Of a stretch of DNA of 56,975 nt, positions 5,917 through 31,674 are shown piece after piece. Position numbers and translations under genes: made by a program. Location: IMG/VR virus record IMGVR_UViG_3300035533_000009, positions 1 to 56,975 of that record. One strand, 5' to 3'. Position 1 is the first letter of the stretch, and each line of letters begins with the position of its first letter. Below the pieces are notes generated by a model. The model saw only the letters and a list, made by a program, of their open reading frames with translations, was not told the DNA's origin and did no database searches. The stretch is from a virus.

Positions 5917-5938
5917 GTTTTAACTGATACCGTGATTC

Positions 5939-5957
5939 GCGGGGCGTAATGCCCCGC
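5939..5957 (+). terminator. Stem-loop after the capsid gene (weak or partial terminator)
   Basis: GCGGGGC-GTAAT-GCCCCGC, a perfect 7-bp stem, followed only by TTATCC, so probably leaky. Confidence 0.4.
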
Positions 5958-5984
5958 TTATCCACAGCATAAGGAGCAAGAACC

Positions 5985-6356: not shown

Positions 6357-6370
6357 GCCGGTAGGTACTG

Positions 6371-6583: not shown

Positions 6584-6642
6584 CCACACAACCTCAGATT
6601 GGGCGGGGCGGGGTAACTCGCCCCTGCTCATAAGGTGACGAC

Positions 6643-12648: not shown

Positions 12649-13068
12649 ATGATTGACGCAATTATATACATACAGGACTTCCCAACTTTCGCAGGATACT
12701 TAGCTACAAACTACCCTAACCTATTAAAAAAGAACGAGGACGGCACTATTGCCCAACCTCTAGTAGTTACCGGAATAGCCCGCACACCAGCGGCAATCAA
12801 TGGTAACTCCATGTTGGCTTATCTTAGATTAACTGACGAAGAAGCAACTCAATGGCGTGGCATGGAAGGTGTAGAGGTATTGGCTGAAGCACCGTTCACA
12901 GGCAAGGGTACAGCAGATACTCTTTACTCCACTATCTTCAACGACACCGCTCTAAACGACAAGTACGAATCCGTCTACTCAACCGCTCCCTACATGACAG
13001 ACGACGGAGAAGGCAACCAAATACAAGTAACTCCCCCGCAACGCTTCGGCGTAATAGGAGGTGCGTAA
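12649..13068 (+). CDS. Hypothetical protein (139 aa)
   Basis: TAAATG junction with the tail fibre gene. Lies in the AT-richer block. Confidence 0.55.
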   Translation: MIDAIIYIQDFPTFAGYLATNYPNLLKKNEDGTIAQPLVVTGIARTPAAINGNSMLAYLRLTDEEATQWRGMEGVEVLAEAPFTGKGTADTLYSTIFNDTALNDKYESVYSTAPYMTDDGEGNQIQVTPPQRFGVIGGA

Positions 13069-15234: not shown

Positions 15235-16698
15235 ATGGCGACACAGGAAGAAGTTACACAGGGTTGGGCGGCTTTTCAGGCCGCGAACGATCCTACATAC
15301 ACTCCGGCAAATCCGGGAGTTTTAAGCAGTTCCCCTGACCCGAGCCCAGCGCCGTCACCGACACCTACGCCGACTTCAAGCTACAGCGCTCCGGCTTCCA
15401 CGTCTTCTGCGCCATCGTATACGCCTACGGATGCAGACATACAAAGTATTTACCGCGACACCTTTGGGCGTGACGCGGACACCGCGGGGTTAAACTACTG
15501 GAAAGAGGACGTAGCACGGCACAACCGCAGCGCCGATGATCTTCGTAATGCGATCCAGGCGGGGGCAATAGGGTACGATGTGGTGGCACGTGACGACCCC
15601 ACCGGCCCCGAATATGCGACTGCGTGGGACAGCTCTCTTGACCCCAACTCGGGCAATCTTGTCTATGACGCCAATCGTGATAGTTGGGTGCCGGAAAAGA
15701 AAAAGAAGCCTGCGCCGGTTCAGCCCAGCCTTTACAGCGTCAATCCAAGCACCATGACGGTGCAGGGGCAGATGCAGGGCCTATTGGCGAGCGACAGCCC
15801 CTACATCAACCTGGCGCGACAGCAGGCAGCAGAGCAGGCGAACTCACGCGGCTTACTCAGCAGCTCAATCGCGGCTTCGGCGGGGCAACGTGCAGCGATT
15901 GAGTCGGCCTTACCCATCGCGCAGCAGGACGCGCAGACCTACTTCAGCCAGAGCAACCTCAACCAGAACGCGGAAAACAATTTTAAGCTGTTCAATAAAG
16001 AGTTTGAGTACAACGACTACTTTGCCGATCAGGAGTATTTACAGCAACAGGGGCTCAATGCGCAGCAGAACTATGCGGCTATGGATCTGCAGCGCCTGCA
16101 GGACTCCGGTTCGATGGACAGGCTGGAAACCGAACTGGAGTATAAGCGTGACATCGCGGAGATGGAGAACGCTATCAACTGGGAGCAGATCGACGCGGAG
16201 AACCGCCAGATGTTCACCGAAGCAACCGGTAAGCTGGGGCAGCAGTACATCGACGCGGTGAAGGACATTCAGATCAGCCGCGATCTTGATGCTGATAGTA
16301 AGGATGTGGCAATCGCTAACCTCAAAGCACTGTACCGCGAGAACATGCAGTTTCAGGCAGACCTCTACGACGTCGAACTTGTGTGGGGTGATATTGTGGC
16401 TGAGCAACCCGCTGAGGGTGAAAACACTGAGGGTACGACAACCGAGCAGACTTATAACATGCCTGCAGCAGCGGATGTGCAGCCGTTGGGCGCTGAAGGC
16501 TACACCCTGCTGGAAGATGGGCGCTACATGAAAGAGAATAGCGGGGGTGGGTACTCGGTATTCTCCGGCGACCCGACTGAACTGTACGGCGACGTGTACT
16601 TTGATCAGGGCAACGGCTTCTATGTCGATCCCTCGACCGGTGGTCTTGTAACCAAGCGCGATATCCAGAACGCACAAGCGCCCATGAACCTTCCGTAA
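15235..16698 (+). CDS. DUF4214-domain protein (probable virion/internal protein)
   Basis: A Pro/Ser/Thr linker (SPDPSPAPSPTPTPTSS) is followed by IQSIYRDTFGRDADTAGLNYWKEDV, the DUF4214 signature as I recall it. Confidence 0.6.
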   Translation: MATQEEVTQGWAAFQAANDPTYTPANPGVLSSSPDPSPAPSPTPTPTSSYSAPASTSSAPSYTPTDADIQSIYRDTFGRDADTAGLNYWKEDVARHNRSADDLRNAIQAGAIGYDVVARDDPTGPEYATAWDSSLDPNSGNLVYDANRDSWVPEKKKKPAPVQPSLYSVNPSTMTVQGQMQGLLASDSPYINLARQQAAEQANSRGLLSSSIAASAGQRAAIESALPIAQQDAQTYFSQSNLNQNAENNFKLFNKEFEYNDYFADQEYLQQQGLNAQQNYAAMDLQRLQDSGSMDRLETELEYKRDIAEMENAINWEQIDAENRQMFTEATGKLGQQYIDAVKDIQISRDLDADSKDVAIANLKALYRENMQFQADLYDVELVWGDIVAEQPAEGENTEGTTTEQTYNMPAAADVQPLGAEGYTLLEDGRYMKENSGGGYSVFSGDPTELYGDVYFDQGNGFYVDPSTGGLVTKRDIQNAQAPMNLP

Positions 16699-16715: not shown

Positions 16716-17198
16716 ATGCAACTGACCAACTGCCCGGAGCATGTCCGCATTGTGGACGATATCGTACAAGAACCCGCCGTGTTCGACATGCTGGTGGATG
16801 ACCACAGCCAGGGGTTCAAGGGCCAGAGCGTGGGCGCAAGCTTTCTCTCCGGCCCTTATACTATGCTGAACCCGGCACCGGGCGTGCTCTTCATGCTCAG
16901 CCCGCGCACTCTGACGATGTTTGAGTTGCACACCATGATTAAGCAGGAGGCGCGCGGTAAGAGTGCGCTACAGGCGGCGCGGAAGGCGGCGAAGTGGCTA
17001 TTCAAAAACACTACATGCGAGAAGCTGATAACCAATGTCCCGACATTCAACAAACCCGCGCTGGCGTTTGCGCTGCGCTTCGGGTTTAAGCGTGAGGGGC
17101 TGTGTACTAAGAGTTTTCGCCGGGATGGGAAGCTGTACGATCAGCACCTACTCGGCCTCGAAAAAGGAGCATTTTTATGCCAGCAATACCAGCAGTAG
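16716..17198 (+). CDS. GNAT-family N-acetyltransferase (putative)
   Basis: Motif-A-like RGKSALQAARKAAKW followed by NVPTFNKPALAFALRFGFKREG, a RimJ/RimL-type pattern. Confidence 0.55.
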   Translation: MQLTNCPEHVRIVDDIVQEPAVFDMLVDDHSQGFKGQSVGASFLSGPYTMLNPAPGVLFMLSPRTLTMFELHTMIKQEARGKSALQAARKAAKWLFKNTTCEKLITNVPTFNKPALAFALRFGFKREGLCTKSFRRDGKLYDQHLLGLEKGAFLCQQYQQ

Positions 17199-18073
17199 CG
17201 GCGGCAGTCGCAACCGGAACCGGCATGGCGGCATCTATAGGCGGGGCAATCGGCCTTGGGTCTGGCCTTGCAGCGGCAACCGTCGGCGCGGGGATCGTGG
17301 GTGCTGTAGCCGGTGGAGTAGTTGCGGCGGTGCAGGGTGAGGACATTCTTGAAGGCGCTGTAAAAAGTGGTATTACCGGCGCGGCAGTCGGATTTGTCGG
17401 CTCCGGTGGTCTCGGTGAAGTGATGGGCGGTGCTGAAGGAGCCACCGGCGGCGAGATTATGGCCGGAACCGGTGACACGGCGACTGTTGCCGGTGAAAGC
17501 GCGTCTGTAGCTGGAGGCACAGCGGCTGAGAGCGGCAGTACCGTGGCAATTCAGGAGAGTTCGAGTATCGCCGCCCCAAAGATGGGCAGTGGCGGTAGCG
17601 GCTTTATGACAGAGACAGCAGGCTCCGGAGACGGCTTCAGTCTGACCGGAGACGCGGCTTCTACTCTCGGTGAAGGATCGAAGTTTGCGGCAACAACTGC
17701 CGGAGACAGCGCAACCTCCCTCGCCGCTAACTCTACCGTTAAAACCACCCTGGAGGCAGGGTCCATGGCCGACACCGGCGGGTTCCTGAGTGGCTTATCC
17801 TCGGGCGAGAAGATGATGGCGATGACCTCTCTCAGCGGCGCAGCGGAAGGCTGGATGGCCGGGGAGTCTGCCGAAGATGCAGCCAAGGCGCAGGAAGAGG
17901 CGTTCAACCGCATTCAGTTGAACTCTGACTCTGACGCAAGCACAGGACTGCTGATGTCTTCTGACACATCGTTCCAGCCGTCGACCTCAACACAGCTCAA
18001 CTCATCCAGCAAAGTGCAGAAGCCTACAATCCGCAGACCCACAGTGAAGGGATCTTCGTATGTTACAGCCTAA
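17177..18073 (+). CDS. Gly/Ala-rich (glycine-zipper) internal virion/ejection protein candidate
   Basis: A 298-aa ORF dominated by G/A/S/T hydrophobic runs (AAAVATGTGMAASIGGAIGLGSGLAAATVGAGIVGAVAGG). AAGGAG RBS. Confidence 0.55.
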   Translation: MPAIPAVAAAVATGTGMAASIGGAIGLGSGLAAATVGAGIVGAVAGGVVAAVQGEDILEGAVKSGITGAAVGFVGSGGLGEVMGGAEGATGGEIMAGTGDTATVAGESASVAGGTAAESGSTVAIQESSSIAAPKMGSGGSGFMTETAGSGDGFSLTGDAASTLGEGSKFAATTAGDSATSLAANSTVKTTLEAGSMADTGGFLSGLSSGEKMMAMTSLSGAAEGWMAGESAEDAAKAQEEAFNRIQLNSDSDASTGLLMSSDTSFQPSTSTQLNSSSKVQKPTIRRPTVKGSSYVTA

Positions 18074-18821
18074 AGGACTACTCCAGGAGCAGCCACAACA
18101 GGGGCAACCCCAGCAAGGTCAACCGCCCGTTCAGCAGGCACAGAGTCAGCGTCCCAAACAGAACCCGGCGCAGCGCGATTACGATATGGAACCGCTGGGT
18201 GAGCGCGATGAAAAGCAGCTGCGGGCGCTGCAAACCAACGCCGTAAAGCTGATCCACTCGGACAGGACTCGTGGGCAAATCTTGAAAATGTTTGAGAAAA
18301 CTGACGACCACCCCATCAATAAAATATCCCGGGTGTCTACCTCTATCCTCAACCGGATCGAGCAGGAGGCGCGCAAGGACGGCGACAGCATTGACAACCT
18401 GGTTAAAATCTACGGTGGCAACATGATCGTGGGTGAGGTGATCAACCTGGTGGAAGCAGCGGGGAAAATCCGCCCCATGAGCGAGGACGAAAAGACCGTG
18501 GCGCTCTCCAAGGCGGTACAGGATTACACCAACCAGATGATAAAGGACGGTGAGATCACGCGCGAGGAGCTCAAGCACTACACGAACCAGGGGCTGTCTA
18601 TCGCCGAGCAGAGCGGCCTGATTGACATGACCAAGATCAACCGGCGCAAGCAGGAGGCCGGGATGGCACCGAAGAAGCCGGAGATCAAGCGTCCCGCCCT
18701 ACCCGCTCAACAAGCGCAGCCGACACAACAGGCTCCGGCGTCCAACGTGAATGATCCGTTTAACCCGAGCACAACCATGTCGGAGCAACTGAACCGCAGA
18801 GGAGGCTTACTCAATGGCTGA
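18060..18821 (+). CDS. Hypothetical protein (253 aa), Gln/Pro-rich N-terminus
   Basis: Overlaps the previous ORF and lies within the ejection-protein run. Confidence 0.55.
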   Translation: MLQPKGLLQEQPQQGQPQQGQPPVQQAQSQRPKQNPAQRDYDMEPLGERDEKQLRALQTNAVKLIHSDRTRGQILKMFEKTDDHPINKISRVSTSILNRIEQEARKDGDSIDNLVKIYGGNMIVGEVINLVEAAGKIRPMSEDEKTVALSKAVQDYTNQMIKDGEITREELKHYTNQGLSIAEQSGLIDMTKINRRKQEAGMAPKKPEIKRPALPAQQAQPTQQAPASNVNDPFNPSTTMSEQLNRRGGLLNG

Positions 18822-19824
18822 TAAAGCGGCATACATCGGAGCCGGATTACTCAAAGGCTTCGCCCGAGGCGGTGAACATCTTGCCAAGCGCTCCCTCGAA
18901 CAGGAAGAGCGCGAAGCGGAGGCCCTGCGGCAGCGCAGCCTGGCTGAATTTCAGGCTGAACTTAACGACACCTACGCCCAGAAGCGCGAAGACCGCGCCT
19001 ACGAGCGCGACAAGGGCATGGTTGACTACCGCAACGAGGCCAAGAAGGGGCAGATCAGCCGCACAATCACCCGCGTGGATGATAAAACCGGCAAGAAGTA
19101 CCAACTAGAGGTGGATAGTTACGGCAACCCGGTTACGGATGAGCGCCTTTCCGGCGTGTCTGAGGGATTGCTTTCCGGAGGATCCGGATCAAAGAAAGAT
19201 ATTAAGCTGGGAGATATGCCCGACGATGTGCTGAATGATCCACTCCTCCAACGTGTAGTTAAAGACGAAGAAGGCAACCCCATACCCGACATGAAGACCG
19301 GTAAGCCCATGACCGAGACGAATTGGGGTGAAGTGTCGCAGATACGTGACATGATGACCCAATACGGAATCAGGGATTGGCGGCAAGGAGTGTTTCTTTA
19401 TAAGCAGAGCGTATTGCCCCAGCGTATCGAGCAGGAACGGCAGGAACGCATACAGGCGGTTGTTGAGGCAGGACCAGAAAAGGCCCGCAAGCTTATTGAG
19501 AAAATGAAGCCCGAAACCCGCGCCCAACTCGTAAGTGAGTTGCCGGATGACTTCCTGAGCCAGGTCGAGTCATCCGCGAATAAGCCTTCGGTAAATACGG
19601 ATTCGCGCGACCCCCAAGAGCGGTATTCGAATGCCACTCCCGAACAGATAGCGGAATCCCTGCGCGGGAAGGCCCCTTTTCTGATAGACAACCACCTAAG
19701 GCAACTCCCGGAAGAAACCGCAGCACAGGTTAAGGAGATACTTAACCAAAAGTCCCCCGTTGATCCCAACAGCCTGAAGGGCTCAATTATAAATGCCGGA
19801 CGCAATCTAGGGCTTCTGGAATAA
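18814..19824 (+). CDS. Hypothetical protein (336 aa)
   Basis: Overlaps the previous ORF by 8 nt. Charged and helix-prone. Confidence 0.55.
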   Translation: MADKAAYIGAGLLKGFARGGEHLAKRSLEQEEREAEALRQRSLAEFQAELNDTYAQKREDRAYERDKGMVDYRNEAKKGQISRTITRVDDKTGKKYQLEVDSYGNPVTDERLSGVSEGLLSGGSGSKKDIKLGDMPDDVLNDPLLQRVVKDEEGNPIPDMKTGKPMTETNWGEVSQIRDMMTQYGIRDWRQGVFLYKQSVLPQRIEQERQERIQAVVEAGPEKARKLIEKMKPETRAQLVSELPDDFLSQVESSANKPSVNTDSRDPQERYSNATPEQIAESLRGKAPFLIDNHLRQLPEETAAQVKEILNQKSPVDPNSLKGSIINAGRNLGLLE

Positions 19825-19836: not shown

Positions 19837-22800
19837 TTGGATAGATTAGACAGTGACTTTATATCTGAGTTCGACCGCGCCTGGCAGGAAGTTGAAGCAG
19901 AAGAGGCTGAGGTCAAGAAGCGGCAGAACCTTCCAGACCCGGTGCGCGGACTTCTTGGCGGCATTGATACCACACAGGGCCTCGCGTATGGAACCGCTGC
20001 ATTGGCAGGGAAAGCGCTCGGCTCCGAATCGTTGCAGGATTGGGGGGTTGAGGGATATCAGCGCAACATGGAAGAGTCTGCGTCCTACGGCGAGTCACCA
20101 GAGTTTGGCGAAGATCCTCTGGGCTGGGCTGGCTACAATCTGGGCGCGGTCTTTCCTTCCATGGTTGAAGCTGCGGGTGGAGCGGCGATAGGAACCATGG
20201 CTGCTCCCGGTCCCGGAACCGCAGCCGGTGCAACAGCAGGGCGCACGATTCTCAAAAAAGCTATAGGCAAGCTGTCAAGTGATATGGTGGAGAGCTATGC
20301 CAAGAAGCACGGGCGCGAGGCTGTCACCAAGGAAATAATCGACCAGGCCACTGAACAGGCACAGAAAGCCACATTGAAGAAGCTGGGCGGTAGAGCGGGC
20401 GCTGTGGGCGCAACCCTCCAAATGGAGGCTGGGGGCAACTTCGGTGAAGCGGTAGACGTGGTGGGCGTAGATGACGCAAGCGTTACCTCAGCCATTGCTA
20501 CCGCCATTCCTTCGGCGCTGGTGGAAACAGCCGGTGGTAATATCCGCATATTGGATAAGGTGTTGGATAGCCGTTATGCACGCATGGCGAAAGAGGGTAT
20601 ACAGAAAAATAACCCCGGCATAATAGCCCGTGCCATAACAGAGGGTGCAAAACAGGCTCCTGCAGAGGCGGCACAAGAGTCGTTCCAGGAGTTAATGAGC
20701 CTGTCAAACCTGTATATGAATGACCCCACCAATGAAGGTTTGAGCGCGGAAAACGTGAAGTCTCGCCTGGGCGAGTCCGCAGGCGTTGGGGCTCTGGCTG
20801 GCGGCGTGTTTGGCGGTGTAACTGGAGCTGTGTCGCGCGGTGGCACAGCGCAAGAGAACATCTCGGCCAAAATAGCGCAAGCAAAGCAGTCAGTGCCCAA
20901 GACCGGCGATCCTATCACCGATATGACGAACGAGGTGCAGGCCGAGACTGCCGCACTGGAGCAGACAGCCACCGAGCGGTGGGAGGGAGCATGGCGTGGA
21001 GTAGCAGCGCAGGAAGATCAGCGCGCGAAACGCGCCCGCATAAGAGACAGTCAGTTCGGCGACACGATCCCCGGTGAATCTGTCATGCAGGTATCGCAGA
21101 GAAGAAACGCGGGAACGGGCCTGCTTACCACACCCGAAAGACTTCTCCCGTATCAGGAGCAGGTCGTTGCAGAGCAAGAGCCTACAGTCCTTCCGTCAGA
21201 CGCACCCCGGTCTGGATATATGTCGCCGGAGATGTTCGAGCAGACCGGGCGCATGTTGCCATACAGTTATCGCGACAACCTTTCCCCCGAACAGCAGACA
21301 GAGCGCACCAACATCGCCCTGCGCGAAAGAGACCGCCAACAGCAGAGCCTTACCCGCGAACAGTTCCAGGAAGCGCAGAAACGGGTAAATCAGGTGGACA
21401 ATTACGCGCAACTGCGTGAAAACACAATGCGCCAGATTCGCAACCTTGAGAGAAAGAAGGACCTTAACAAGCCACAGCGCAACAGACTGAAGAGGTTGCA
21501 GGCACGCTTCGACCGCCTGACCCGCGTAGCCCCGGAGAAGCGTACTAACGCCGACAGGGTGAGCAAAGAAGGAAGCAAAGAGTTTATTCCGGTAATGAAG
21601 CGCAAGGAATACCGCGATATACTCCCCGAATACGTGCGCCAGAATGTCCAGACGAAGGACGAGATGGGTATGGGTTCCGTAGTAAACGCCGACGAGCGCG
21701 GACACTTTGGGCAGCGCACCCCCTCAACCAATCCCGCATGGGCGCAGGATGCCATAGCCGTTGCCGGGTCGGTGCCTAAACTCCGTAATGCGGTAGAAAA
21801 AGCCGCAAACGGCGAACCCCTGGGCGAGAATCAGCGCATTGCGGTGGAGATAGTAGCCGACGCCTACCGTGATGAACGCAACCAGGGGCGCGTGGGCGAA
21901 GTATTGCAGCGCCGTACCGACACGCAGAACCTTGTACGCACCCGCCAGGCCACAAAGGATAAGCCCTCAAGCCAGTATCTTGAGATGGACGAACGCGAGC
22001 AGGCGGTATATGACGAACTGGACAGCGAAACAAAGACCCTGCACGAACTTACCATGCAGGCATACGATGTGGCCGACGAGAACAGCGTGGATGCGTTGCT
22101 CGAATCTGACTTGAGCGATGGTGAGATTGCCGCAGAACTGTACAATTTAATTGAAAGGAAATCCAATGGGCGACAAAGCGAAACAGGTGAAACAACTGAT
22201 CGACAAGCAGAGACAGCGCAAGGGCCTGAAGCGGGGACCACAGAACGGGACGGGACCGAAAGCGCAGAAGGGGATGTGCGACAAGAAGTAGACCCGGATC
22301 AATTTCCTGACGCCACGAAAATGATCGAAACGGAACAGGCAACCGAAGCGACTGCACAGCCCACGGCTGACGTAGCAATCGAGGCAGGGCAGGGTCAGCG
22401 TAGCGAATCTGCCGCACCCGACTTTGAGGAAATGGTAAAGGAAGCCGCTCGCTGGAGAGGGGCAGCTCTGAATCATGCCTCCAATCTTGACAAAAAAGGC
22501 AAGTTCAAGGTATCGCAGCGCACTACCAAGGGCGACCTGGACGAATACCTGATGCGCAGGTACGGCATTGACGAAACAGCCGCAAGGGACGTTTCCAATG
22601 CGCTTACACAGCGTAACGTAGAAGATGATAGAACCGCAGACCCGGCAGACTATGATGGTGAGGCGTGGCAGCAGGTTGGCAACCCCGTAGCGTCTGACGA
22701 AACAGCGACACAGCCAGACCTCCCCAAAGAGCGCATGAAGTTTGTCGAGCGCAAGGTGTTTGGTGAGAAAGAGGTTACGCAGCCGGACGAGAAGCCAGCG

Positions 22801-25800
22801 AAAGAGCCGCTTGCAGGCAACGGAGCGCAAGAACAAAAACCGAAACCTGAAGTTAGCAAGAACACAATATATACCGACGAGGCGGCAGAAAAGGCACGCG
22901 AGATAATCCGGGCGAGTTTGAGCAGGGTCAACGCAGGCATTGATCCAAAGCTGATGCAGGCGGGTATTACCCTTGCCGGATATCACATAGAGAAAGGCGC
23001 TCGCACGTTTGCAGCCTATGCCAAAGCCATGGTTGAGGATATGGGTGATATGGTCAGGCCGCACCTCAAGGCGTGGTACATGGCGGTGAAATATGAACCT
23101 TCTGCGGCAGAGATGCACGCAGATATGGATTCTGCTGCTACAGTTGAAAGTGCTGAAATTGACGATATACTGAAGGTAAATGGAGGTGAAGATGTCACTG
23201 ACGAGCGTACCCCAGGAAGTGTGGAACGAGATAGCCGAGACGCAGGAACTGGCGACGAAGTGGGCGCAAGAGGTGTTTCCCCTAACCGGGGAGTTCGCGA
23301 TAGCGCAACAGGAGGGCAAGGAGTACGAAGCTCTGCGGAACAAGGGGATAGCGCAGAAAATAGCGGCGGCGTACCTGGACGTGAAACCCCTGCTCCTGGA
23401 AAACGTGGCAATCAGCAGGCATATCCTGCAGACGGATCAGTTGCAGCTGCGCAGCGCACTCCCGGAGGTAACAACGGTGAGCGAGGCGGTGATGTTAGCT
23501 TCGTTGGATCGGCGGTTGACCCCGTTGCAACAGAAGCAGTTGGAGAAACTGCTACAAAAGGACGTGAGAAAGCTGAAACTGCGAAACAGCAGAAGCAAGC
23601 AGAGCACAAGCGCGTAAAACTCGCAGATCGCGAGAATATAGCCGAAACACTTCCCGCGTTGTATGAAGAACAGCAGGATGATGTGTACTTTGCCGAACAG
23701 CGATTCAGCAAGCCGAAAGGCACGGGGGTATTGTTTGCCAACGGTACAGGTACGGGTAAAACATTTACCGGCCTCGGTATTATCAAGCGCTTCTCTATGC
23801 GTGGCAAAGATAACGTCTTGATCGTGGTTCCGAACGCTAAACTTATAGATGACTGGATTGAATCCGGCAAAGCCCTCGGTCTTGATATAAAAAAACTCAA
23901 GGACACCAAGGACAGCGGCAACGGGATAGTTATTACCACGTATGCCAACATGGGCGCCAACAATTCACTAGCAGAGCGTGAATGGGATTTAGTGGTTCCC
24001 GACGAAGCAGACAACCTTATGAGCAACAAGGGTGGCAAGGAGACTTCCGCACTTGCAACCCTGAGAGCCATAACATCCAACCCGCGTGGCACCTATGACC
24101 GCTTCCGTATGCTGTATAGCGATAAGATAGCGGAACGGGATCAACTCAAAGAATCAATGCAGTCCAATCGTAGCCTCTATGCTCTGGACGATACCACGGA
24201 CATGCAACGGACCGACCTTGAAAAAGAGTACGCAGGGCTGAAAGAAGAGTACGATGCGCTGACAAAAGAACTCGACCAGGCTAACAACGAAATTGTTGAC
24301 CAGATAAAAAACATGCCCGACGAACAGCGCACCAGGGTTGCATTTCTGTCCGCCACCCCCATACCCTACGAAAAGAACGTGGACTATCTTGAGGGTTATC
24401 TGTTCGATTATCCCGAAGAGGGCTATATCGGCAACAGCCGCCAGGGTGGTTTTGAGAAGTTCATGGTTGAAAACTTCGGTTATCGTATCCGGTACCATAG
24501 GTTGAATGAGCCGGACAAGGAAGTAAACCGGGGGCTGATGCAGCGCATGTTCAACAAGCGCCTGCGTGAAGAAGGGGTTTTGTCTACGCGGATGCTCAGT
24601 GTAGATAAAGACTATGACCGCCGCTTTGTCCTCACCGAAAACGCCATTGGCAGCAAGATTGATGATGGCCTACAATTCTTGTGGGACAATGAGCAATACC
24701 GCCCGCTGGCTGACATTATCAATAAACGCTTTGACTATCTCTCCAGGCGATACCTACTTGAGGCTATCAAGGCGCGTGAATCTGTGCCCTTGATAAAAGA
24801 CCACTTGAGTAAGGGGCGCAAGGTTGTGGTTTTCCACGACTATAAAAAGGGCGGTGGTTTCAATCCATTTGACCTTGGGACTTTGCGCAACAGCAAAGAA
24901 GAAATAGCCAAGACTGATATGACCCTTGGCGACCTGGTGAAGCAGTTTGAGGCGGAGCGCCCGGACTTGCAGCAGATAGACTTTGAAGGGTTAAACTCTC
25001 CCGTGGCAACATTTAGCCAAGCGTTTGATGACGAACTCCTTATTGTGAACGGAGACTTCAAGGAGCGGGAAAATCTGGAATCGTTCAAGCGTTTCAACGA
25101 CGAGGATTCCGGGCCTATGGTAATGCTGGTGCAGTCTGCCAAAAACTCCGGCTGGAGTGGGCACGACACCACCGGCAAGTATCAGCGTGTAATGTTTAAC
25201 CTTGGCTTGCCGGAGCGCCCCACAATGGCAATCCAGCAAGAGGGCAGGATTTACCGCGTAGGGCAGGCGTCCAATGCGATATTCCGCTACTTGAATACGG
25301 GCACAAATTGGGAGCGCATTGCTTTTGCGCAAACCATAGCGCAGCGTTCATCAACAGCAGAAAACCTGGCAATGGGTGAAGAAGCCCGCGCCCTCATGGA
25401 TGGGTTCATTGAAGCGTTCGAGGAGTCCGACAGCTACCCGGCAGGACACCCTGGAGAGGGAACCGGCGGCAAGGAGCGCGACGCTGCGGCAAACGCGGCG
25501 CTGACCGAATGGGACCGCGCCATGTCGCTGTATTACTCCCAGCTCAAACGCAACAGTAAGAGCAAAGCACAAGAGGGCTTGGATTATTTCGCCACGCCAG
25601 AACCGCTCGGCCTGAAAATGGTTGAGTGGGCAGATGTTCGTGGCGGTGAAGATGTGCTTGAACCTTCAGCCGGACATGGCGCCATAGCCCGCTGGATACC
25701 CGAAAATGTAAACGCTACCATCGTTGAACCATCCCTTGAATTAAGCTCAAAGGTTCGCATGGTGGCCCAGGGCAAGCATATTACTGACACCTTTGAAAAT

Positions 25801-28800
25801 CTCCACAAGGTCAATAAGTACGACGCTATTGTTATGAACCCTCCATTTGGAAAAGGCGGAAAGACCGCAATAGAACATCTGGAGAAAGCAACCAACCATC
25901 TGCGCGACGGTGGCCGTGTTGTGGCAATTATCCCAACCGGTCCGGCAGCGGATAAGCGTTTTGACAACTGGTTCTATGCTGAAGATGAGAAGGGCAAGAG
26001 CCTTACACCAGACCTGAGTTTAAGGGCTGAAATAAGTCTGCCATCATCAACCTTTGAGCGTGCCGGAACATCGGTTAAGGCACGGATAGTTGTTATTGAC
26101 AAAGGTAGCGAATCAACCGAGACAGCTACCCGCGACTATTCAAGTGCCACTGGTGTTAAAGAGTTTTTCGAGCGCATAGAAGATTCCAGCATACCGGAAC
26201 GTACTAAGGCGGAACCAGCAGAAGAAGCTATCGCGCCCCAGGCGGAAGGGAGCGAAAGCGGTTTCAAACTCGCGCAAACCACTCACGCAAAAAAAGGCAT
26301 CGACCTCTATGTGGCAACAAACATTGAGCGTGTTCCGTATGAAGAATATAAACGACTCAACTCAATAGCGAAAAAGCACAACGGCTATTACTCCAAGTTT
26401 AGCCGCAACGGTGCAGTGCCGGGCTTCCAGTTTGAAAGCGAGCAGGACAGGGCAGAGTTTTTGAAAGAAGCCGGTCAAGAACAGTTGCAATCACGCTCGG
26501 CACAGAAAACCAACAACACCACCGCACAGGTAGAAAAAGAAGCTAAAGCCTTCCTCGGCAAAGGCTTCGAGCGCATGAAGAACGCGGGTAAACTGAAGGT
26601 GGTGCAGAGTGTGAAGGACTTGCCAAACGTGGCGCGTGGAATGTTTGCCGCTGCATGGCACGGGTCGCCCCACAGGTTTGATAAGTTCAGCACAGAAAAT
26701 ATCGGTACGGGTGAGGGAGCGCAGGCTTACGGGCATGGTCTTTATTTTGCGTCAAGCCGGAGGGTGGCGGAGTGGTATAAGGAAAAATTATCTGGGAAGC
26801 TTCCATACAAAACGCGAGTACGGTCTTACGAAGCGCCAGAAGGTGGGCGAGGCTGGCTGGTGGAAGTTTTTTCTAAGGATCGGCGCACTGGAGAGGATGA
26901 CAGGACTCCGTATTATTTAAAAAAAGACGCAGATTTGAAGGATTATTTATCTGACACTGACGCAAAGCGCCTGATTACTAGCGCGGAATCCCAAGGTGAC
27001 GTTGATGAAGTAATCCGCATCAGCAATGAAGGCAACCTCTACCAAGTCGAACTCGCACCAAAGGAAGATGAGTACCTTCTCTGGGACAGGCCGCTGAGTG
27101 AACAGAGCGAGAAGGTGAAGACGGCGCTGTCTGATGCTATGGGGCCGGGGATACTGAAAGACGGTTCAGGGCAAAATCTTTACAAACACCTTTCTGGCAA
27201 TATGTCGCTTGGGTCGCAACAAGCCGCCTCCGGATACCTCCACTCCCTCGGCATCCGTGGTATCAAGTATCTTGACGGGTCAAGCCGCAGCAAAGGTGAA
27301 GGCAACTACAACTATGTCATATTTAACGATGCTGATGTTGAAATTACCGCTCTCTACTCCAAGAACGGCGATATTGCCGGCGTCTACCAGGACGGCACTA
27401 TCTACCTCGTTGCAGATCAGATAGAGAAAGGTGAAACCGCCGGGCTGCTGAAACACGAAGGCTTGCACCTCCTGCTGCGTAACGACCCGGCCTTTAAGAA
27501 GCGCAAGGGCGAGATCATGCGCCAGTTTAAGAACCTCAAGAACACCCCCAAAGTGCGGGAAGCGTACAACTCCGTGCCGGAAGATACCGCTGCCAACGTG
27601 CGCGACGAGGAAGCACTGGCGTACCTGGTGCAGAACCACAAAGAGCACAGCCTGGTTAAGCGGATCATCTCAGCGGTGAAGGCATGGATGTTCCGCAACG
27701 GTATTCCGGTAACAAAGCTGACCGAAGGTGACTTGACCGCACTTGCGGCGCAGGGGATTAAGCGGTTCAGCAAGGCACAGACCATAGAGCAGGCTTTAGC
27801 GCAAGCAGACGCTATGGTAGGCAGCGAGCAACCCGTATTCTCCCGCAAGCGCACCAAGGGCACCGAAGCGCAGGAGAAAGCCCTGCGCGAGACACAGGCG
27901 GTCCCTAAAGATGAAATGTCCTGGCATGAGCGCGTGCAGGACTGGATGAAGGGGATCAGCGAAAACTTCAATAAAGAGAACATCCGCCAATCGGTATTTG
28001 ACGAATATGCCAGTGTAGAGAGAGCGGAAAAGCAGAAATACGGCAAACTTCTGGACGCTGACTTTTCCCCATCCAAGGCGTTACGTGCTACCAAGAACCT
28101 TGATTCCGTTATGGCGGCAATCTTCATGAAGGGCAAGATACGCCGGAACAAGAACGGCTGGGTTGAGCTTGTTGACCCAAAAAACGGCAAAGGGTTCCTG
28201 CAAATCTTTGAACCCTTGTTTCAGTACGAGGGCGGATCGCTTACGCGCCTGTGGGAAGGTTACGCCGGGGCGCGACGTGCCAAGGAGTTGAAAGCGCAGA
28301 ACCGCGAGAACAACTACAGTGACGAGCAGATAAAGGAACTGCTGAAACTCGAACGAGAATACGACGGTACAAACGGAAAGCCGGACTTCAAGGCGATATT
28401 TGACGAATATCAGGCGTTCAATAAATCCATCCTGGACTTTGCCGAATCAGCAGGAGTAATTGACCCGGAAAGCCGCAAGTTGTGGGAGAGCAACGACTAT
28501 ATCCCCATGTACCGTATCCTCGACGACATGGACGACGCCAAGGGGCCGATGAAAAAAGGCGGCGTAGCAAGCCAGACAAGCGGAATACGCAAGCTCAAGG
28601 GCGGTGTAAGTAAACACGGCGGCGTACTGGAAAACATGGTAATGAACATGACCAAGCTGGTGGACGCCAGTTATAAGAACATCGCTGCTGAACGCGCCAT
28701 TGACCTGGGGCTTGAAACTGGGCACGCGGAAGCGGTGGCAGGATCGGCTGCGAACATGGAAGAGGAGCAGATACGCGAGTACGTCAACGGTGTAGGCCTC

Positions 28801-30501
28801 GACTACGACGCTATGGACGAAGGACAGCAGGAAGCATGGCGCAAGACCCTGCGTAAATTCAGCCCTGAAGGCGGGGATATTGTTCATATTCTCAAAGATG
28901 GGAAGCGCAAATACTACCGCGTGAACGACCCCCTCTTCCTGCGCAGCTTGCAGAGCGTAGGCGGCACGGATAGCAACGTATTAAAGCTGTTCCGTATGTC
29001 TAAAAGCCTGCTGACCAACACCGTTACGGCTAACCCTTCGTTTATGTTGGCGAACTTTCTGCGTGACTCCATAAGCACGTGGATGGTTACAGGTACAAAA
29101 ATGATACCGGTACTCTCCGGGATAAAGCAGGGCATGAAGGCGTGGAACGAGGACACGATGCTCTGGCAGATGATGGCAGCCGGTGCCGGGGGTGGGCGCT
29201 TCTACAACACCCGCTCCAAAGATGTGCGCAAGATGGCGAACCAGATCGAAAAGAAAATGAAAGATAAAAACTTCTCCGAGACGGTGCTGGATTCCCCGGG
29301 TAAAATCTGGCAGTTCTGGCAGAAGATGGGCAACGCCTCCGAGAATGCAAACCGTCTGGCAGTCATGCAGGATTATCTCAACCGGGGATACACCCAGACA
29401 GAGGCCGCATATCAGGCAATGGACGTAATGAACTTCACCCGCCACGGTGACGGGGTGATAATGAAGTTTATGATGGATACCGTACCCTTCTTGAACGCAC
29501 GTATTCAGGGCCTGGACCGCTTATACCGTGGGGCAAAGGAGAACCCCGGCACATTTGCTATACGGGGTGCAATGTTGGGCATGGCTTCCCTGGCGCTGTA
29601 CATGGCGAACAAAGATCGGGAAGAGTACGACGATCTCCCGGAGTGGGATAAAGATATTTACTGGCACTTTTTTACCCCGTTCGGACACTATCGTTTCCCG
29701 AAACCGTTTGAAGTTGGCGCAATCTTTGGTATGCTTCCAGAACGTATTGCTGAAGCGGTAAGCAAGGGCGAAACAAGGTTTCTCGCAGACGCCACAAAGC
29801 GGATGGTAATGGACACGTTCGCCTTCGATCCCATGCCGCAGTTGGTAAGACCGGCATACGAAATAGCCATAGACCGCAACCGGTTCTTTGATTCGCCCAT
29901 TGTCGGGTTCGATAAATACCTCGACCCGGAAGCACAGTACAACACCCGCACGCCGGTGAGTTATGTGAAACTCGCAGAAGCTATGCCTGATATAGCGCCG
30001 GACTTCCTGAGAAGCCCGAAACAGCTTGAACACTTAGTGCGGGGATACACATCTTCTGTCGGTTCAATCATGTTCTGGATGGCTGACCGGATGATGGAGC
30101 AGGCGGGGATGATCGATAAGAAAGAAACCATGCAGCTTACGGAGATGCCGGTGATAAAGCGCTTCTTCCGTGAGTATGACCCCAGAAGTGTAAAGTATTC
30201 CAGCTACTTTTACGATATGGTCAACGAGGCGGATCAGATATACAAGACCGTTAACAAGTACATGAAGTACGGACGCCGGGATGATGCCCGCGAACTTATA
30301 GACGACAACCGCGAACTGTTGCAGAAACGCAAAGGCCTGAACCGCTACAAGCGGCAAATATCCGAAATCAATCGCACAATGGATAAGATAGCCCGCTCAA
30401 GCCTTGCACCGGCAATAAAAGACGCACGCAACCGTAAGCTACAGCAGCAGAAAAACCAGCTGCAAAAGAGAGCCGTAGAGATCTACGGGGAAGGATTCTG
30501 A
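19837..30501 (+). CDS. Giant polyvalent (DarB-like) protein: SNF2-type helicase + N6-adenine DNA methyltransferase + PARP-like ADP-ribosyltransferase + HExxH metallopeptidase
   Basis: 3,554 codons, with a TTG start 8 nt after AGGAG. Motifs in order: GTGTGKT (23743), VVPDEADN (24001), QQEGRIYRVGQ (25234), LEPSAGHG (25657), NPPF (25837), AAWHGSPHRF...YGHGLYFAS (26650-26751), KHEGLH (27451). Confidence 0.9.
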   Translation: MDRLDSDFISEFDRAWQEVEAEEAEVKKRQNLPDPVRGLLGGIDTTQGLAYGTAALAGKALGSESLQDWGVEGYQRNMEESASYGESPEFGEDPLGWAGYNLGAVFPSMVEAAGGAAIGTMAAPGPGTAAGATAGRTILKKAIGKLSSDMVESYAKKHGREAVTKEIIDQATEQAQKATLKKLGGRAGAVGATLQMEAGGNFGEAVDVVGVDDASVTSAIATAIPSALVETAGGNIRILDKVLDSRYARMAKEGIQKNNPGIIARAITEGAKQAPAEAAQESFQELMSLSNLYMNDPTNEGLSAENVKSRLGESAGVGALAGGVFGGVTGAVSRGGTAQENISAKIAQAKQSVPKTGDPITDMTNEVQAETAALEQTATERWEGAWRGVAAQEDQRAKRARIRDSQFGDTIPGESVMQVSQRRNAGTGLLTTPERLLPYQEQVVAEQEPTVLPSDAPRSGYMSPEMFEQTGRMLPYSYRDNLSPEQQTERTNIALRERDRQQQSLTREQFQEAQKRVNQVDNYAQLRENTMRQIRNLERKKDLNKPQRNRLKRLQARFDRLTRVAPEKRTNADRVSKEGSKEFIPVMKRKEYRDILPEYVRQNVQTKDEMGMGSVVNADERGHFGQRTPSTNPAWAQDAIAVAGSVPKLRNAVEKAANGEPLGENQRIAVEIVADAYRDERNQGRVGEVLQRRTDTQNLVRTRQATKDKPSSQYLEMDEREQAVYDELDSETKTLHELTMQAYDVADENSVDALLESDLSDGEIAAELYNLIERKSNGRQSETGETTDRQAETAQGPEAGTTERDGTESAEGDVRQEVDPDQFPDATKMIETEQATEATAQPTADVAIEAGQGQRSESAAPDFEEMVKEAARWRGAALNHASNLDKKGKFKVSQRTTKGDLDEYLMRRYGIDETAARDVSNALTQRNVEDDRTADPADYDGEAWQQVGNPVASDETATQPDLPKERMKFVERKVFGEKEVTQPDEKPAKEPLAGNGAQEQKPKPEVSKNTIYTDEAAEKAREIIRASLSRVNAGIDPKLMQAGITLAGYHIEKGARTFAAYAKAMVEDMGDMVRPHLKAWYMAVKYEPSAAEMHADMDSAATVESAEIDDILKVNGGEDVTDERTPGSVERDSRDAGTGDEVGARGVSPNRGVRDSATGGQGVRSSAEQGDSAENSGGVPGRETPAPGKRGNQQAYPADGSVAAAQRTPGGNNGERGGDVSFVGSAVDPVATEAVGETATKGREKAETAKQQKQAEHKRVKLADRENIAETLPALYEEQQDDVYFAEQRFSKPKGTGVLFANGTGTGKTFTGLGIIKRFSMRGKDNVLIVVPNAKLIDDWIESGKALGLDIKKLKDTKDSGNGIVITTYANMGANNSLAEREWDLVVPDEADNLMSNKGGKETSALATLRAITSNPRGTYDRFRMLYSDKIAERDQLKESMQSNRSLYALDDTTDMQRTDLEKEYAGLKEEYDALTKELDQANNEIVDQIKNMPDEQRTRVAFLSATPIPYEKNVDYLEGYLFDYPEEGYIGNSRQGGFEKFMVENFGYRIRYHRLNEPDKEVNRGLMQRMFNKRLREEGVLSTRMLSVDKDYDRRFVLTENAIGSKIDDGLQFLWDNEQYRPLADIINKRFDYLSRRYLLEAIKARESVPLIKDHLSKGRKVVVFHDYKKGGGFNPFDLGTLRNSKEEIAKTDMTLGDLVKQFEAERPDLQQIDFEGLNSPVATFSQAFDDELLIVNGDFKERENLESFKRFNDEDSGPMVMLVQSAKNSGWSGHDTTGKYQRVMFNLGLPERPTMAIQQEGRIYRVGQASNAIFRYLNTGTNWERIAFAQTIAQRSSTAENLAMGEEARALMDGFIEAFEESDSYPAGHPGEGTGGKERDAAANAALTEWDRAMSLYYSQLKRNSKSKAQEGLDYFATPEPLGLKMVEWADVRGGEDVLEPSAGHGAIARWIPENVNATIVEPSLELSSKVRMVAQGKHITDTFENLHKVNKYDAIVMNPPFGKGGKTAIEHLEKATNHLRDGGRVVAIIPTGPAADKRFDNWFYAEDEKGKSLTPDLSLRAEISLPSSTFERAGTSVKARIVVIDKGSESTETATRDYSSATGVKEFFERIEDSSIPERTKAEPAEEAIAPQAEGSESGFKLAQTTHAKKGIDLYVATNIERVPYEEYKRLNSIAKKHNGYYSKFSRNGAVPGFQFESEQDRAEFLKEAGQEQLQSRSAQKTNNTTAQVEKEAKAFLGKGFERMKNAGKLKVVQSVKDLPNVARGMFAAAWHGSPHRFDKFSTENIGTGEGAQAYGHGLYFASSRRVAEWYKEKLSGKLPYKTRVRSYEAPEGGRGWLVEVFSKDRRTGEDDRTPYYLKKDADLKDYLSDTDAKRLITSAESQGDVDEVIRISNEGNLYQVELAPKEDEYLLWDRPLSEQSEKVKTALSDAMGPGILKDGSGQNLYKHLSGNMSLGSQQAASGYLHSLGIRGIKYLDGSSRSKGEGNYNYVIFNDADVEITALYSKNGDIAGVYQDGTIYLVADQIEKGETAGLLKHEGLHLLLRNDPAFKKRKGEIMRQFKNLKNTPKVREAYNSVPEDTAANVRDEEALAYLVQNHKEHSLVKRIISAVKAWMFRNGIPVTKLTEGDLTALAAQGIKRFSKAQTIEQALAQADAMVGSEQPVFSRKRTKGTEAQEKALRETQAVPKDEMSWHERVQDWMKGISENFNKENIRQSVFDEYASVERAEKQKYGKLLDADFSPSKALRATKNLDSVMAAIFMKGKIRRNKNGWVELVDPKNGKGFLQIFEPLFQYEGGSLTRLWEGYAGARRAKELKAQNRENNYSDEQIKELLKLEREYDGTNGKPDFKAIFDEYQAFNKSILDFAESAGVIDPESRKLWESNDYIPMYRILDDMDDAKGPMKKGGVASQTSGIRKLKGGVSKHGGVLENMVMNMTKLVDASYKNIAAERAIDLGLETGHAEAVAGSAANMEEEQIREYVNGVGLDYDAMDEGQQEAWRKTLRKFSPEGGDIVHILKDGKRKYYRVNDPLFLRSLQSVGGTDSNVLKLFRMSKSLLTNTVTANPSFMLANFLRDSISTWMVTGTKMIPVLSGIKQGMKAWNEDTMLWQMMAAGAGGGRFYNTRSKDVRKMANQIEKKMKDKNFSETVLDSPGKIWQFWQKMGNASENANRLAVMQDYLNRGYTQTEAAYQAMDVMNFTRHGDGVIMKFMMDTVPFLNARIQGLDRLYRGAKENPGTFAIRGAMLGMASLALYMANKDREEYDDLPEWDKDIYWHFFTPFGHYRFPKPFEVGAIFGMLPERIAEAVSKGETRFLADATKRMVMDTFAFDPMPQLVRPAYEIAIDRNRFFDSPIVGFDKYLDPEAQYNTRTPVSYVKLAEAMPDIAPDFLRSPKQLEHLVRGYTSSVGSIMFWMADRMMEQAGMIDKKETMQLTEMPVIKRFFREYDPRSVKYSSYFYDMVNEADQIYKTVNKYMKYGRRDDARELIDDNRELLQKRKGLNRYKRQISEINRTMDKIARSSLAPAIKDARNRKLQQQKNQLQKRAVEIYGEGF

Positions 30502-30682: not shown

Positions 30683-30694
30683 GTGTCTTGGCTA

Positions 30695-30724
30695 TTGAGT
30701 ACAATGGGTACACAGTGGTATACT
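30695..30724 (+). promoter_or_regulatory. Possible promoter TTGAGT-18 nt-TATACT upstream of the endolysin
   Basis: The hexamers are readable directly after the terminator. The 18-nt spacing is suboptimal. Confidence 0.3.
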
Positions 30725-30760
30725 CATAAGTATAACCTTTCAGTTTGTCACAGGGGACTT

Positions 30761-31351
30761 ATGGAAAACTACTGCGTTCTTATCGACCCCGGCCACGGAG
30801 GTATCTTCTCCGGTGCCGTAGCGGGCGGTGTGAAGGAAAAAGATATTACTCTTGGCGTGTCGTACCAGTTGTTCGAGAGATTGCGCGAGAAGGGCATACA
30901 CGCGCTTATGACGCGCATGGCAGACCACGAGCTAAAACCAGACCTTGGAGCGGACCTCCAGGAGCGGTGCAATATCGAGCACAAGATCAGACCCGCGCTT
31001 TTTATCTCACTCCACTGCAACGCTGCATCCAGCGAGCAAGCACACGGGTTTGAGGTTTTCACTTCTCCCGGAGAAACCCCATCAGACGCAACCGCCGCAA
31101 ACATCTACACCTACATGCAGGCTGATCATCCGGATATCACTTACCGCACCGACTACAGCGATGGAGACCCGGACAAGGAAGCAAACTTTGCGGTCCTCAC
31201 CGGCACGCGCGGCCCGGCGGTGTTGGTAGAGCTTGGCTTTCTGACCCACCCCGAAGAACGCAAGCGCCTGACCAGCCCCCACTATACAAGCGCAATCGCT
31301 GGAACAATCGCAGAAGCAATTATTGCATCGCCGTGGCTCTTCGGGAGGTGA
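30761..31351 (+). CDS. N-acetylmuramoyl-L-alanine amidase (Amidase_3) endolysin
   Basis: LIDPGHGG, EKDITL, LFISLHCNA and GFEVF appear in Amidase_3 order. Met27 of track ORF 30683 is used as the start. Confidence 0.85.
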   Translation: MENYCVLIDPGHGGIFSGAVAGGVKEKDITLGVSYQLFERLREKGIHALMTRMADHELKPDLGADLQERCNIEHKIRPALFISLHCNAASSEQAHGFEVFTSPGETPSDATAANIYTYMQADHPDITYRTDYSDGDPDKEANFAVLTGTRGPAVLVELGFLTHPEERKRLTSPHYTSAIAGTIAEAIIASPWLFGR

Positions 31352-31674
31352 AATTGTCGGAAACATGCCACGACATACACAACAAAGTTGGGAACCTGAA
31401 AGTAACCGTAACCCTGGTTCTGGCAGCGTTCGGAACCATCCTGGTGTTGACCGGATATAACATCAACCAGACGCTTCAGACGCGGCAGGAGATGATCCGC
31501 ACTATGGGAGAAATGCGCACCGAAATACGCGAAGATGTGGCCCGGATCGGCGGACAAATGAGCACCACGAGCCTACGCATAAAGCACTTGGATGACCGCA
31601 TATTTGAAAACCGGGAACTGCTCGTGGACCACGAAAAGCGGATACAGAGGCTAGAGAAGCATGAGGGAGAATAG
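31333..31674 (+). CDS. Membrane-anchored coiled-coil protein (i-spanin-like candidate)
   Basis: An N-terminal TM segment (VTVTLVLAAFGTILVLTGY) precedes a charged coiled coil. TTG 31354, after GGGAGG, is a plausible true start. Directly follows the endolysin. Confidence 0.45.
   Translation: MALREVKLSETCHDIHNKVGNLKVTVTLVLAAFGTILVLTGYNINQTLQTRQEMIRTMGEMRTEIREDVARIGGQMSTTSLRIKHLDDRIFENRELLVDHEKRIQRLEKHEGE

Follow-up and report, generated by a model that had tools for sequence, protein, structure and literature searches.

We analysed the whole of the IMG/VR virus record IMGVR_UViG_3300035533_000009 (positions 1 to 56,975; this 56,975-nt stretch is called the window below) and describe here the giant gene that lies on its plus strand at 19837..30501. 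The virus is an uncultured short-tailed phage. The gene is a single open reading frame (ORF) of 3,554 amino acids (aa) with a TTG start, and its 10,665 nt make up 18.7% of the 56,975-nt window. This agrees with a preliminary description, made from the letters of the sequence, which had claimed one uninterrupted 10,665-nt ORF covering about 19% of the genome. An AAGGAG lies 8 nt before the TTG, and this Shine-Dalgarno sequence overlaps the stop of the preceding gene. There is no second in-frame start before residue 20, and similarity to other proteins begins already at that residue. The same description had read the gene as a polyvalent virion-module protein with helicase, methyltransferase, ADP-ribosyltransferase (ART) and metallopeptidase domains, and this core reading is supported by Pfam and PHROG matches, thousands of ART homologues, conserved catalytic residues, genome context and the kinship of the C-terminal module with a protein detected in virions. 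We propose, with a probability of roughly two in three (about 0.68), that the product of the gene is a polyvalent protein of the phage type: it would be carried inside the virion and would bring several unrelated enzymes into the host together with the DNA. The protein joins at least two unrelated activities in one polypeptide and is encoded among late/virion genes, as is characteristic of the polyvalent class.

Four predicted enzyme domains in a single polypeptide

The protein is laid out as a glycine- and alanine-rich (G/A-rich) leader, a variable cargo region and a C-terminal module of ~850 aa that contains the LPD38 domain, and the cargo follows the order helicase-methylase, ART, peptidase. 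Each of the four enzymes retains its catalytic residues. Every motif listed in the preliminary description is present, nearly always at the nucleotide given there. The differences are small: VVPDEADN starts at nt 23992, with nt 24001 marking its DEAD part, and YGHGLYFAS spans 26728-26754.

The first enzyme is a helicase/translocase of superfamily 2 (SF2), SNF2/Strawberry-notch-like (Sno), at aa 1278-1840 (23668..25356, plus strand), recognised from Pfam, its motifs and a PDB sequence match. We find motif I (GTGTGKT) at aa 1303 (nt 23743), motif II (VVPDEADN) at aa 1386 and motif VI (QQEGRIYRVGQ) at aa 1800 (nt 25234), and the domain contains a helical insert of ~340 aa. Two Pfam families score above their cut-offs, ResIII (43.8 bits) and DEAD (28.1 bits), as expected of the SNF2/DEAD-type helicase that had been called from the three motifs. 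A profile check against SNF2_N and Helicase_C had also been suggested. Here the SF2 assignment stands through ResIII and DEAD, but the more specific families SNF2-rel_dom (22.1 bits against a cut-off of 24.9) and Helicase_C_4 (25.5 against 30.5) fall short, as does AAA_34 (18.3 against 27). The top sequence match in the PDB is the SNF2/Rad54 helicase 1z63 (E 1e-4). Membership of SF2 is secure, and the SNF2/Sno subfamily is likely.

The helicase is followed by a gamma-class N6-adenine DNA methyltransferase at aa 1915-2105 (25579..26151, plus strand), assigned from Pfam and from the order of its motifs. The motifs come in the gamma-class order, with a TP motif in YFATPEPL, LEPSAGHG at aa 1941 (nt 25657) and NPPF at aa 2001 (nt 25837). 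Both N6_Mtase (26.3 bits against a cut-off of 20.4) and MTS (28 against 23) are above the Pfam cut-offs, so that the earlier N6-adenine methyltransferase call passes its profile check. Searches of the giant protein with NCBIfam and PADLOC gave generic helicase and methylase matches only, and the PADLOC methylase models match the methyltransferase region.

The third enzyme is an ADP-ribosyltransferase cassette of the ART-PolyVal family at aa 2260-2505 (26614..27351, plus strand), delimited by homologues, conserved residues and DNA breakpoints. Its two motifs are AAWHGSPHRF at aa 2272 (nt 26650) and YGHGLYFAS at aa 2298. Among the 5.8 billion proteins searched, 4,932 homologues of the cassette were recovered, most of them with PF18760, the ART-PolyVal profile. 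Among these homologues H2275, Y2303 and D2417 are invariant, and D2480 is invariant or at least 90% conserved. The alignments hold no invariant Glu downstream of the Tyr, and the conserved acidic residues are Asp. Because the family conserves Asp (D2417, D2480) and not a catalytic Glu, the domain should be classed as H-Y-D and not H-Y-E. The preliminary description was therefore right about the His and Tyr elements (WHGS and GxGxYFA) and wrong about the class. It had also proposed a profile check with ART-PolyVal, and the native domain scores only 20.9-23.6 bits (cut-off 31.2), over profile positions 4-51. An insert of ~80 variable residues (aa ~2320-2400) follows the Tyr strand, and when 76 aa of this variable insert are deleted in silico the score rises to 31.8 bits, just above the cut-off. 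The core is modelled by AlphaFold2 (AF2) with a predicted local distance difference test (pLDDT) score of 90-98. Based on these data, we assign the cassette as a predicted complete ART-PolyVal domain with an H-Y-D triad (Tox-ART-HYD2 clade). The H-Y-D ART is the commonest protein-modifying domain in polyvalent proteins (Iyer et al. 2017, PMC5512222).

Directly after the ART lies a putative zincin-like metallopeptidase at aa 2506-2660 (27352..27816, plus strand), with HEGLH at 2540-2544 and E2592; the longer motif KHEGLH starts at aa 2539 (nt 27451). An iterative search among the sequences gathered here collected 202 domain matches, and in the 123-sequence alignment of this family H2540 is conserved at 93%, E2541 at ~100%, H2544 at 97% and E2592 at 100%. 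The majority of the relatives read HEXXXH; the window's lineage has HEGLH. Both HEXXH and HEXXXH forms have been described for the zincin-like metallopeptidases (MPTases) of polyvalent proteins (Iyer et al. 2017, PMC5512222). The pair of ART and peptidase recurs in other giant proteins. At the level of its signature the zincin-like call appears well supported; at the level of the fold it is unproven, and the evidence on that side is given below.

The part of the protein between the leader and the helicase is made up of three regions, all on the plus strand. A charged, poorly conserved linker with few homologues, by composition in part coiled-coil or disordered, covers aa 361-829 (20917..22323). 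Next comes a small conserved domain at aa ~830-975 (22324..22761), to which 43 of 150 representative matches map; many large phage proteins have this domain, at differing positions, and it is 76% identical in P0146. A conserved region before the helicase (aa 985-1250; 22789..23586) matches phrog_938 at aa 994-1105 and phrog_10691 at aa 984-2226, and a Pfam search of aa 981-1260 returned nothing, even at E<=10.

Two compositional features of the ORF were also noted. The guanine-plus-cytosine (GC) content is mildly mosaic: aa 1-975 and the peptidase have 0.56-0.58, the stretch that begins with the helicase and ends with the ART has 0.50-0.51, and the C-terminal module has 0.52. The tripeptide pattern [FY]S[RKQ] occurs 9 times against 2.6 expected, a count reached in 4 of 2,000 shuffles in what was a post hoc test, and several of its sites lie near domain borders (aa 1290, 1900, 2185-2190, 2507, 2668), where they could be linker or cleavage sites. 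We considered the pattern as a cleavage motif at domain borders and dropped it, given the post hoc nature of the test and given that at the ART/peptidase border it is part of the peptidase's first strand.

Conserved modules at both ends

The N-terminal G/A-rich region (aa ~20-360; 19894..20916, plus strand) had been described as glycine-zipper-like, and its composition agrees: small-xxx-small-xxx-small motifs number 23 in aa 1-420 and 1-8 in each other block of 420 aa. Its most hydrophobic segment is aa 314-333. Pfam has no match to the leader, and a tblastn search of the N-terminal 983 aa against phages found none either; relatives surfaced only in a full HMMER scan of 1.84 billion representatives, which returned 390 proteins at E<=1e-3 and 215 at E<=1e-10. 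In these proteins the match almost always lies near their own N-terminus (median start residue 48), and many of them are 2,000-5,400 aa long. For instance, 14 of the leader proteins carry ART-PolyVal, LPD1, LPD38, InPase, ddrB-ParB, PBECR3, Kinase-PolyVal, GGDEF or RelA_SpoT domains. Because hundreds of matches lie near the N-termini of giant polyvalent proteins, the region is a genuine conserved leader of such proteins and goes beyond mere low complexity.

At the other end, a mostly helical module of ~850 aa (aa ~2700-3550; 27934..30498, plus strand) was delimited from IMG/VR relatives, AF2 and BFVD. The preliminary description had recognised nothing in about 1,000 C-terminal residues. This does not hold, for within the conserved module aa 3262-3440 (29620..30156, plus strand) match the Pfam domain LPD38 (PF18857) with 124.5 bits against a cut-off of 27, over profile positions 2-189 of 189. 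Other features of the module are a hydrophobic helix (aa 3238-3257) and a coiled coil at its end. We found 538 relatives in IMG/VR, nearly all of them C-terminal parts of giant ORFs, and kept 80 loci for inspection; in all 80 the module forms the end of the ORF, and the ORFs range from 794 aa (a standalone module) to more than 4,200 aa. The AF2 model is mostly helical (pLDDT 75.8; predicted template-modelling score 0.68) and superposes on the C-terminal parts of dozens of phage "LPD-containing" proteins in BFVD, with template-modelling (TM) scores of 0.75-0.83 over ~870-900 columns. In a profile comparison with hhalign, the module aligns with the C-terminus of phi24B gp47 over 505 columns (probability 99.3%, E 2.6e-20). 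Other phages combine it in one protein with a lytic transglycosylase or a glycoside hydrolase domain (compare T7 gp16). As a side observation, the standalone form is seen as an 802-aa gene in contigs L038 and L045 (10013-12421), without an upstream giant gene.

A proposed effector slot with three alleles

Comparison with two independent IMG/VR contigs, L005 and L006, locates the ART in an exchangeable segment. Both contigs have an unbroken giant ORF (3,480 and 3,301 aa, respectively) that is 77-95% identical to that of the window in the shared parts. On either side of the segment 26614/26628-27351/27365, which corresponds to the ART, the window is 89-94% identical to L005 and L006 at the nucleotide level. 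At this place L005 (9050-9448) carries 133 aa with a ParB-like GTHRLAAA motif, and L006 (8869-9462) carries an unrelated stretch of ~198 aa; Pfam finds nothing in either of these alternative cassettes. The slot is bordered by conserved junction peptides, on the left ...AGKLKVVQSVKDLP and on the right LYSKNGDIAGVY, which follow the patterns ...LKVVQSxxDLP and ...[LF][YF]S[KQR]xGDI. The left junction ends a linker (26152..26613, plus strand) and is conserved in L005, L006 and P0002; an unrelated metagenomic protein has it ahead of its ART as well. At 26501-26627 the window shares a 127-nt island of homology with L006.

Exchange is not confined to this slot. The helicase-methylase block of the window (22759-26500) is replaced in L006 (5561-8741) by LPD5, a peptidase with HEWFH, LPD1 and RadC/JAB, and this replacement block is homologous to aa 888-1464 of phi24B gp47. 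No DNA similarity to L005 or L006 was seen for the N-terminal ~260-380 aa and the upstream genes. In the more distant giant proteins of Vibrio phage 1.232.O and Ruegeria phage 45A6, the slot is filled by a GNAT acetyltransferase. Extensive mosaicism of polyvalent proteins was already noted by Iyer et al. (2017, PMC5512222); the new element here is the definition of one slot, for which near-identical phages carry three alleles.

Avoidance of cysteine

The giant protein contains no cysteine in its 3,554 aa, and there is none in the 1,374 residues encoded by four ORFs upstream of it. The other structural genes of the window encode 31 cysteines in 4,491 residues (0.69%). This scarcity extends through the family: 74 giant relatives have 14 cysteines in 204,798 residues, 63 of the 74 being without any, and 92 giant proteins with the N-terminal leader have 100 in 277,979 residues. 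The N4 virion RNA polymerase (vRNAP; 3,500 aa) and T7 gp15 and gp16, all shown by experiment to be ejected, likewise have none, and the portal, tail and fibre proteins of N4 and T7 do contain cysteine. P1 DarB, from a myovirus, has 9, and the rule may be podovirus-specific. Cysteine is not mentioned in Iyer et al. (2017, PMC5512222) or in a 2022 review of ejection proteins. We infer that the scarcity may reflect selection on proteins that cross the portal and tail unfolded and meet the oxidising periplasm. Taking this together with the slot, we suggest tentatively, at odds a little short of even, that the ART sits in a hot-swappable effector slot, a 'cargo bay' in an arms race at the scale of strains, and that the ejected proteins of podoviruses, their cargo included, are near-absolutely selected against cysteine.

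Relation to known polyvalent and ejected proteins

The closest precedent for the enzyme content is a prophage protein of Acetonema longum, WP_004096050, which combines SWI2/SNF2, adenine methylase, MPTase and ART domains (Iyer et al. 2017, PMC5512222). The five-part combination that the preliminary description had singled out is thus not unique, although the window protein differs in lacking GGDEF and in having its own domain order and leader. More broadly, the polyvalent class of Iyer et al. has the same set of domains in giant polypeptides encoded among virion genes, and LPD38 is listed there as phage-only. Those authors treat LPD38 as a domain of ~190 aa, whereas here it is the core of a module of ~850 aa that is always C-terminal.

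Several isolate phages have an equivalent gene. The giant gene of phi24B, gp47 (2,807-2,811 aa), also ends a podovirus structural module, has 2 cysteines in 2,807 aa and is homologous over its C-terminal ~520 residues. Its cargo is LPD5-MPTase-LPD1, like the cargo found in L006, without helicase-methylase or ART. Vibrio phage 1.232.O gp28 (3,292 aa), the Ruegeria phage 45A6 protein (3,912 aa) and PTXU04 gp25 (2,197 aa) occupy the same gene position, with 31-34% identity in the C-terminal module. In the Vibrio and Ruegeria proteins the helicase-methylase block is ~39-41% identical to that of the window, and the acetyltransferase stands where the window has ART and peptidase. PTXU04 gp25 has a peptidase and the C-terminal module, without helicase-methylase or ART, and its peptidase reads HEIIVH, the HEXXXH form, as against HEGLH in the window.

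Other resemblances are of concept. P1 DarB, a 2,255-aa antirestriction protein of a myovirus, is likewise a packaged protein with an N6-adenine methylase and an SF2 helicase; it has them as methylase-then-helicase, the reverse of the order in the window, and is without ART, peptidase and LPD38. N4 vRNAP (gp50) is, like our protein, a giant cysteine-free podovirus protein, and it is packaged and injected. In N4 vRNAP an N-terminal part for injection precedes the central enzyme, which is followed by a C-terminal region with an MPTase needed for encapsidation (PMC5512222). An N4-like vRNAP was considered for the window protein and rejected, as no RNA polymerase family matches it and the C-terminal parts give a probability of 0.2% in hhalign. 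In T7, gp14-gp15-gp16 are the last genes of the virion module with the largest last, and gp16 is an enzymatic domain fused to an ejection protein. The T7 proteins are much smaller, however, their enzyme is a transglycosylase and not a set of cytoplasmic effectors, and no fold or sequence match to the window protein is detectable.

Packaging, mechanism and alternative explanations

We infer that the giant protein is packaged and injected. The most direct precedent is phi24B gp47 (2,811 aa; LPD5, LPD1, LPD38, metallopeptidase), which mass spectrometry finds in abundance in purified virions and which is not seen in the cryo-EM map; the authors of the 2026 preprint that reports this propose it to be an encapsidated ejection protein with a role as a conduit. 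PTXU04 gp25, in turn, is essential in a CRISPRi-ART screen. On this model the window protein would be made late alongside the structural genes, and one or both end modules would build it into the capsid interior. At infection it would pass in an unfolded state through the portal and short tail, either following the smaller cysteine-free proteins encoded upstream or together with them, and contact with the envelope may be made by the glycine-zipper leader, which is most hydrophobic at aa 314-333, and by the hydrophobic helix of the C-terminal module (aa 3238-3257). The peptidase could then cut the polyprotein into working pieces by autoprocessing. The translocase-methylase pair might act in cis on the entering DNA and blunt restriction, following the DarB paradigm, and the ART might modify one or more host proteins in the phage's favour, following that of T4 Alt.

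A number of results weigh against this interpretation or against parts of it. For the peptidase, Pfam gives no family even at E<=10, which was the test that the preliminary description had set for its KHEGLH zincin call, so that this call stands on the HExx(x)H...E signature across 123 relatives and not on a profile. A profile of 17 diverse peptidase-domain sequences found no zincin among PDB sequences (an M32 carboxypeptidase came at E 1.5), AF2 confidence is low over the region, and a Foldseek search of the PDB with the model of ART and peptidase together did not recover a zincin. The top match in that search was diphtheria toxin, weakly (E 0.018, probability 0.28), and the use of a two-domain model with inserts probably hurt it. 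The C-terminal model has no counterpart in the PDB by Foldseek (E>=0.6, TM<=0.1), and the idea that it is an N4-type encapsidation domain was dropped after hhalign against the C-terminal 1,400 aa of N4 gp50 gave the 0.2% already mentioned. Because the module has no detectable relation to the N4 encapsidation region or to solved structures, its role is deduced from position and relatives. Leader and C-terminal module do not form a fixed pair either; both occur in 7 of 66 long leader proteins, and we regard them as independent modules. The preliminary description had likened the protein to polyvalent proteins and to P1 DarB; the polyvalent class stands, and orthology with DarB was rejected, as only the methylases align (aa 1918-2089 with DarB 91-274; 25% identity, E 8e-6) and the domain order is reversed. 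The anti-restriction role would rest on the DarB paradigm only. A peptide fingerprint of PTXU04 identified four bands, and gp25 was not among them. Finally, both the presence of the protein in virions and its processing are predictions.

Three other explanations of the locus have to be weighed against this background. The protein may be mainly an essential part of the DNA-delivery apparatus, an ejectosome or pilot component whose C-terminal module, and perhaps leader, form a trans-envelope conduit, with the enzymes as dispensable passengers. The essentiality of PTXU04 gp25, which does without helicase-methylase and ART, would fit such a role, as would the existence of standalone modules of 800-900 aa, the conduit proposed for gp47 and the joining of the module to peptidoglycan hydrolases in some phages. 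We nevertheless consider it unlikely as an account of the gene, since the four enzyme domains keep their catalytic residues under strong conservation and close relatives exchange cargo for other intact effector-type domains with no decay; moreover, a delivery function is compatible with an effector function and does not exclude it. The Xuquatrovirus relative HelliStehle, reported to be very sensitive to restriction systems, can be counted for the delivery role as well. Given that the giant protein of PTXU04, the Xuquatrovirus type phage, has no helicase-methylase, the same report gives an indirect hint that this block has an anti-restriction role.

A different possibility is that the protein is not injected at all and has a late role in the cell that produces it, such as methylating progeny DNA ahead of packaging and modifying host proteins, so that its position would reflect late timing only. 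Many phage methyltransferases act in the producer cell, and gp25 is not one of the four identified PTXU04 bands. Yet the homologous module of phi24B gp47 was found in purified virions, the gene stands where podoviruses have their last internal-protein gene, no enzymatic signature is seen in the conserved end modules, and the family-wide scarcity of cysteine is that of the ejected T7 gp15/gp16 and N4 vRNAP and not of the window's other genes. We therefore hold action in the producer cell to be quite improbable.

Least credible of all, to the point of being nearly negligible, is that several neighbouring genes were joined into the giant ORF by an error of assembly or sequencing. Some relatives are indeed split, as in L020, where a 2,684-aa ORF (826-8880) overlaps one of 1,262 aa (8804-12592). 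However, an open frame of 3,554 codons is impossible by chance, L005 and L006 are independent assemblies that have one ORF across the same junctions, isolate phages have equivalents of 2,197-3,912 aa, and ORFs of at least 1,500 aa are found in 74 of the 80 kept relatives of the C-terminal module. Because the ORFs of L005 and L006 are unbroken and 74 of 80 relatives are this long, a hidden frameshift is very unlikely. A near-identity DNA search with the giant ORF against 50,697 phage records gave zero matches.

Genome neighbourhood

A PHROG scan of the window places the portal at 1180-3402, the major capsid protein at 4966-5916, tail proteins at 6978-9463 and the tail fibre at 9460-12648, with additional virion proteins besides these. 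The cultured phages with the most similar portals are marine Vibrio podoviruses (38% identity) and those of the E. coli Xuquatrovirus group, and the giant gene is placed as are the giant genes of Vibrio phage 1.232.O and PTXU04. Upstream of the giant gene lie four plus-strand candidate internal or ejection protein genes (15235-16698, 17177-18073, 18060-18821 and 18814-19824), proposed from composition; these are the four cysteine-free ORFs referred to above, and none has an informative PHROG match. The preliminary description had seen here a run of Gly-rich ejection proteins. This is true of 17177-18073 (18% Gly) and untrue of the other three candidates (6-7% Gly). The 298-aa product of 17177-18073 has 36% Gly+Ala, a very hydrophobic N-terminus (hydropathy 1.99 at aa 34-52) and no family match; it is likely a membrane-active internal virion protein, and its composition resembles that of the giant protein's leader. 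The run of four is broken by a plus-strand ORF at 16716-17198, whose 160-aa product has 4 cysteines and matches 'head morphogenesis' and acetyltransferase PHROGs. An acetyltransferase (GNAT) is thus a separate ORF in the window and a domain inside the giant protein in Vibrio phage 1.232.O and Ruegeria phage 45A6.

Lysis genes had been expected just downstream, and the plus-strand ORF at 30683-31351 does match endolysin families (phrog_435, E 2e-34); it is followed by a plus-strand gene for a membrane-helix protein (31333-31674; hydropathy 2.08) assigned to lysis. In the tail region, the plus-strand ORF 7649-9463 (604 aa) has a full-length match to a PHROG annotated as 'amidase' (lysis; E 7e-15) and could encode a cell-wall hydrolase associated with the tail, or else a nozzle protein. 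Along the window, GC falls to 0.48-0.49 over the tail-fibre region (10001-14000) and to 0.45-0.48 at 46001-50000. The AT skew turns negative at 52001-54000, a possible sign of a strand switch or of a boundary between modules.

Discussion

The protein class and the combination of domains are already in the literature; the points of note at this locus are the C-terminal module, the leader, the slot and the cysteine-free signature. Giant polyvalent proteins hold a large store of enzymes with which phages may counter host defences and take over the host, hardly any of them tested, and the window offers a well-delimited case, with four enzymes predicted to be active between two delivery-type modules. 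The natural swapping of single cargo domains between near-isogenic phages provides ideal material for the study of cargo function. The C-terminal module has no solved structural relative, is found in hundreds of phages, Shiga toxin (Stx) phages included, and belongs to a protein that is essential in PTXU04. If the avoidance of cysteine proves general, the cysteine-free signature would be a simple, sequence-only flag for injected proteins in metagenomic phage genomes.

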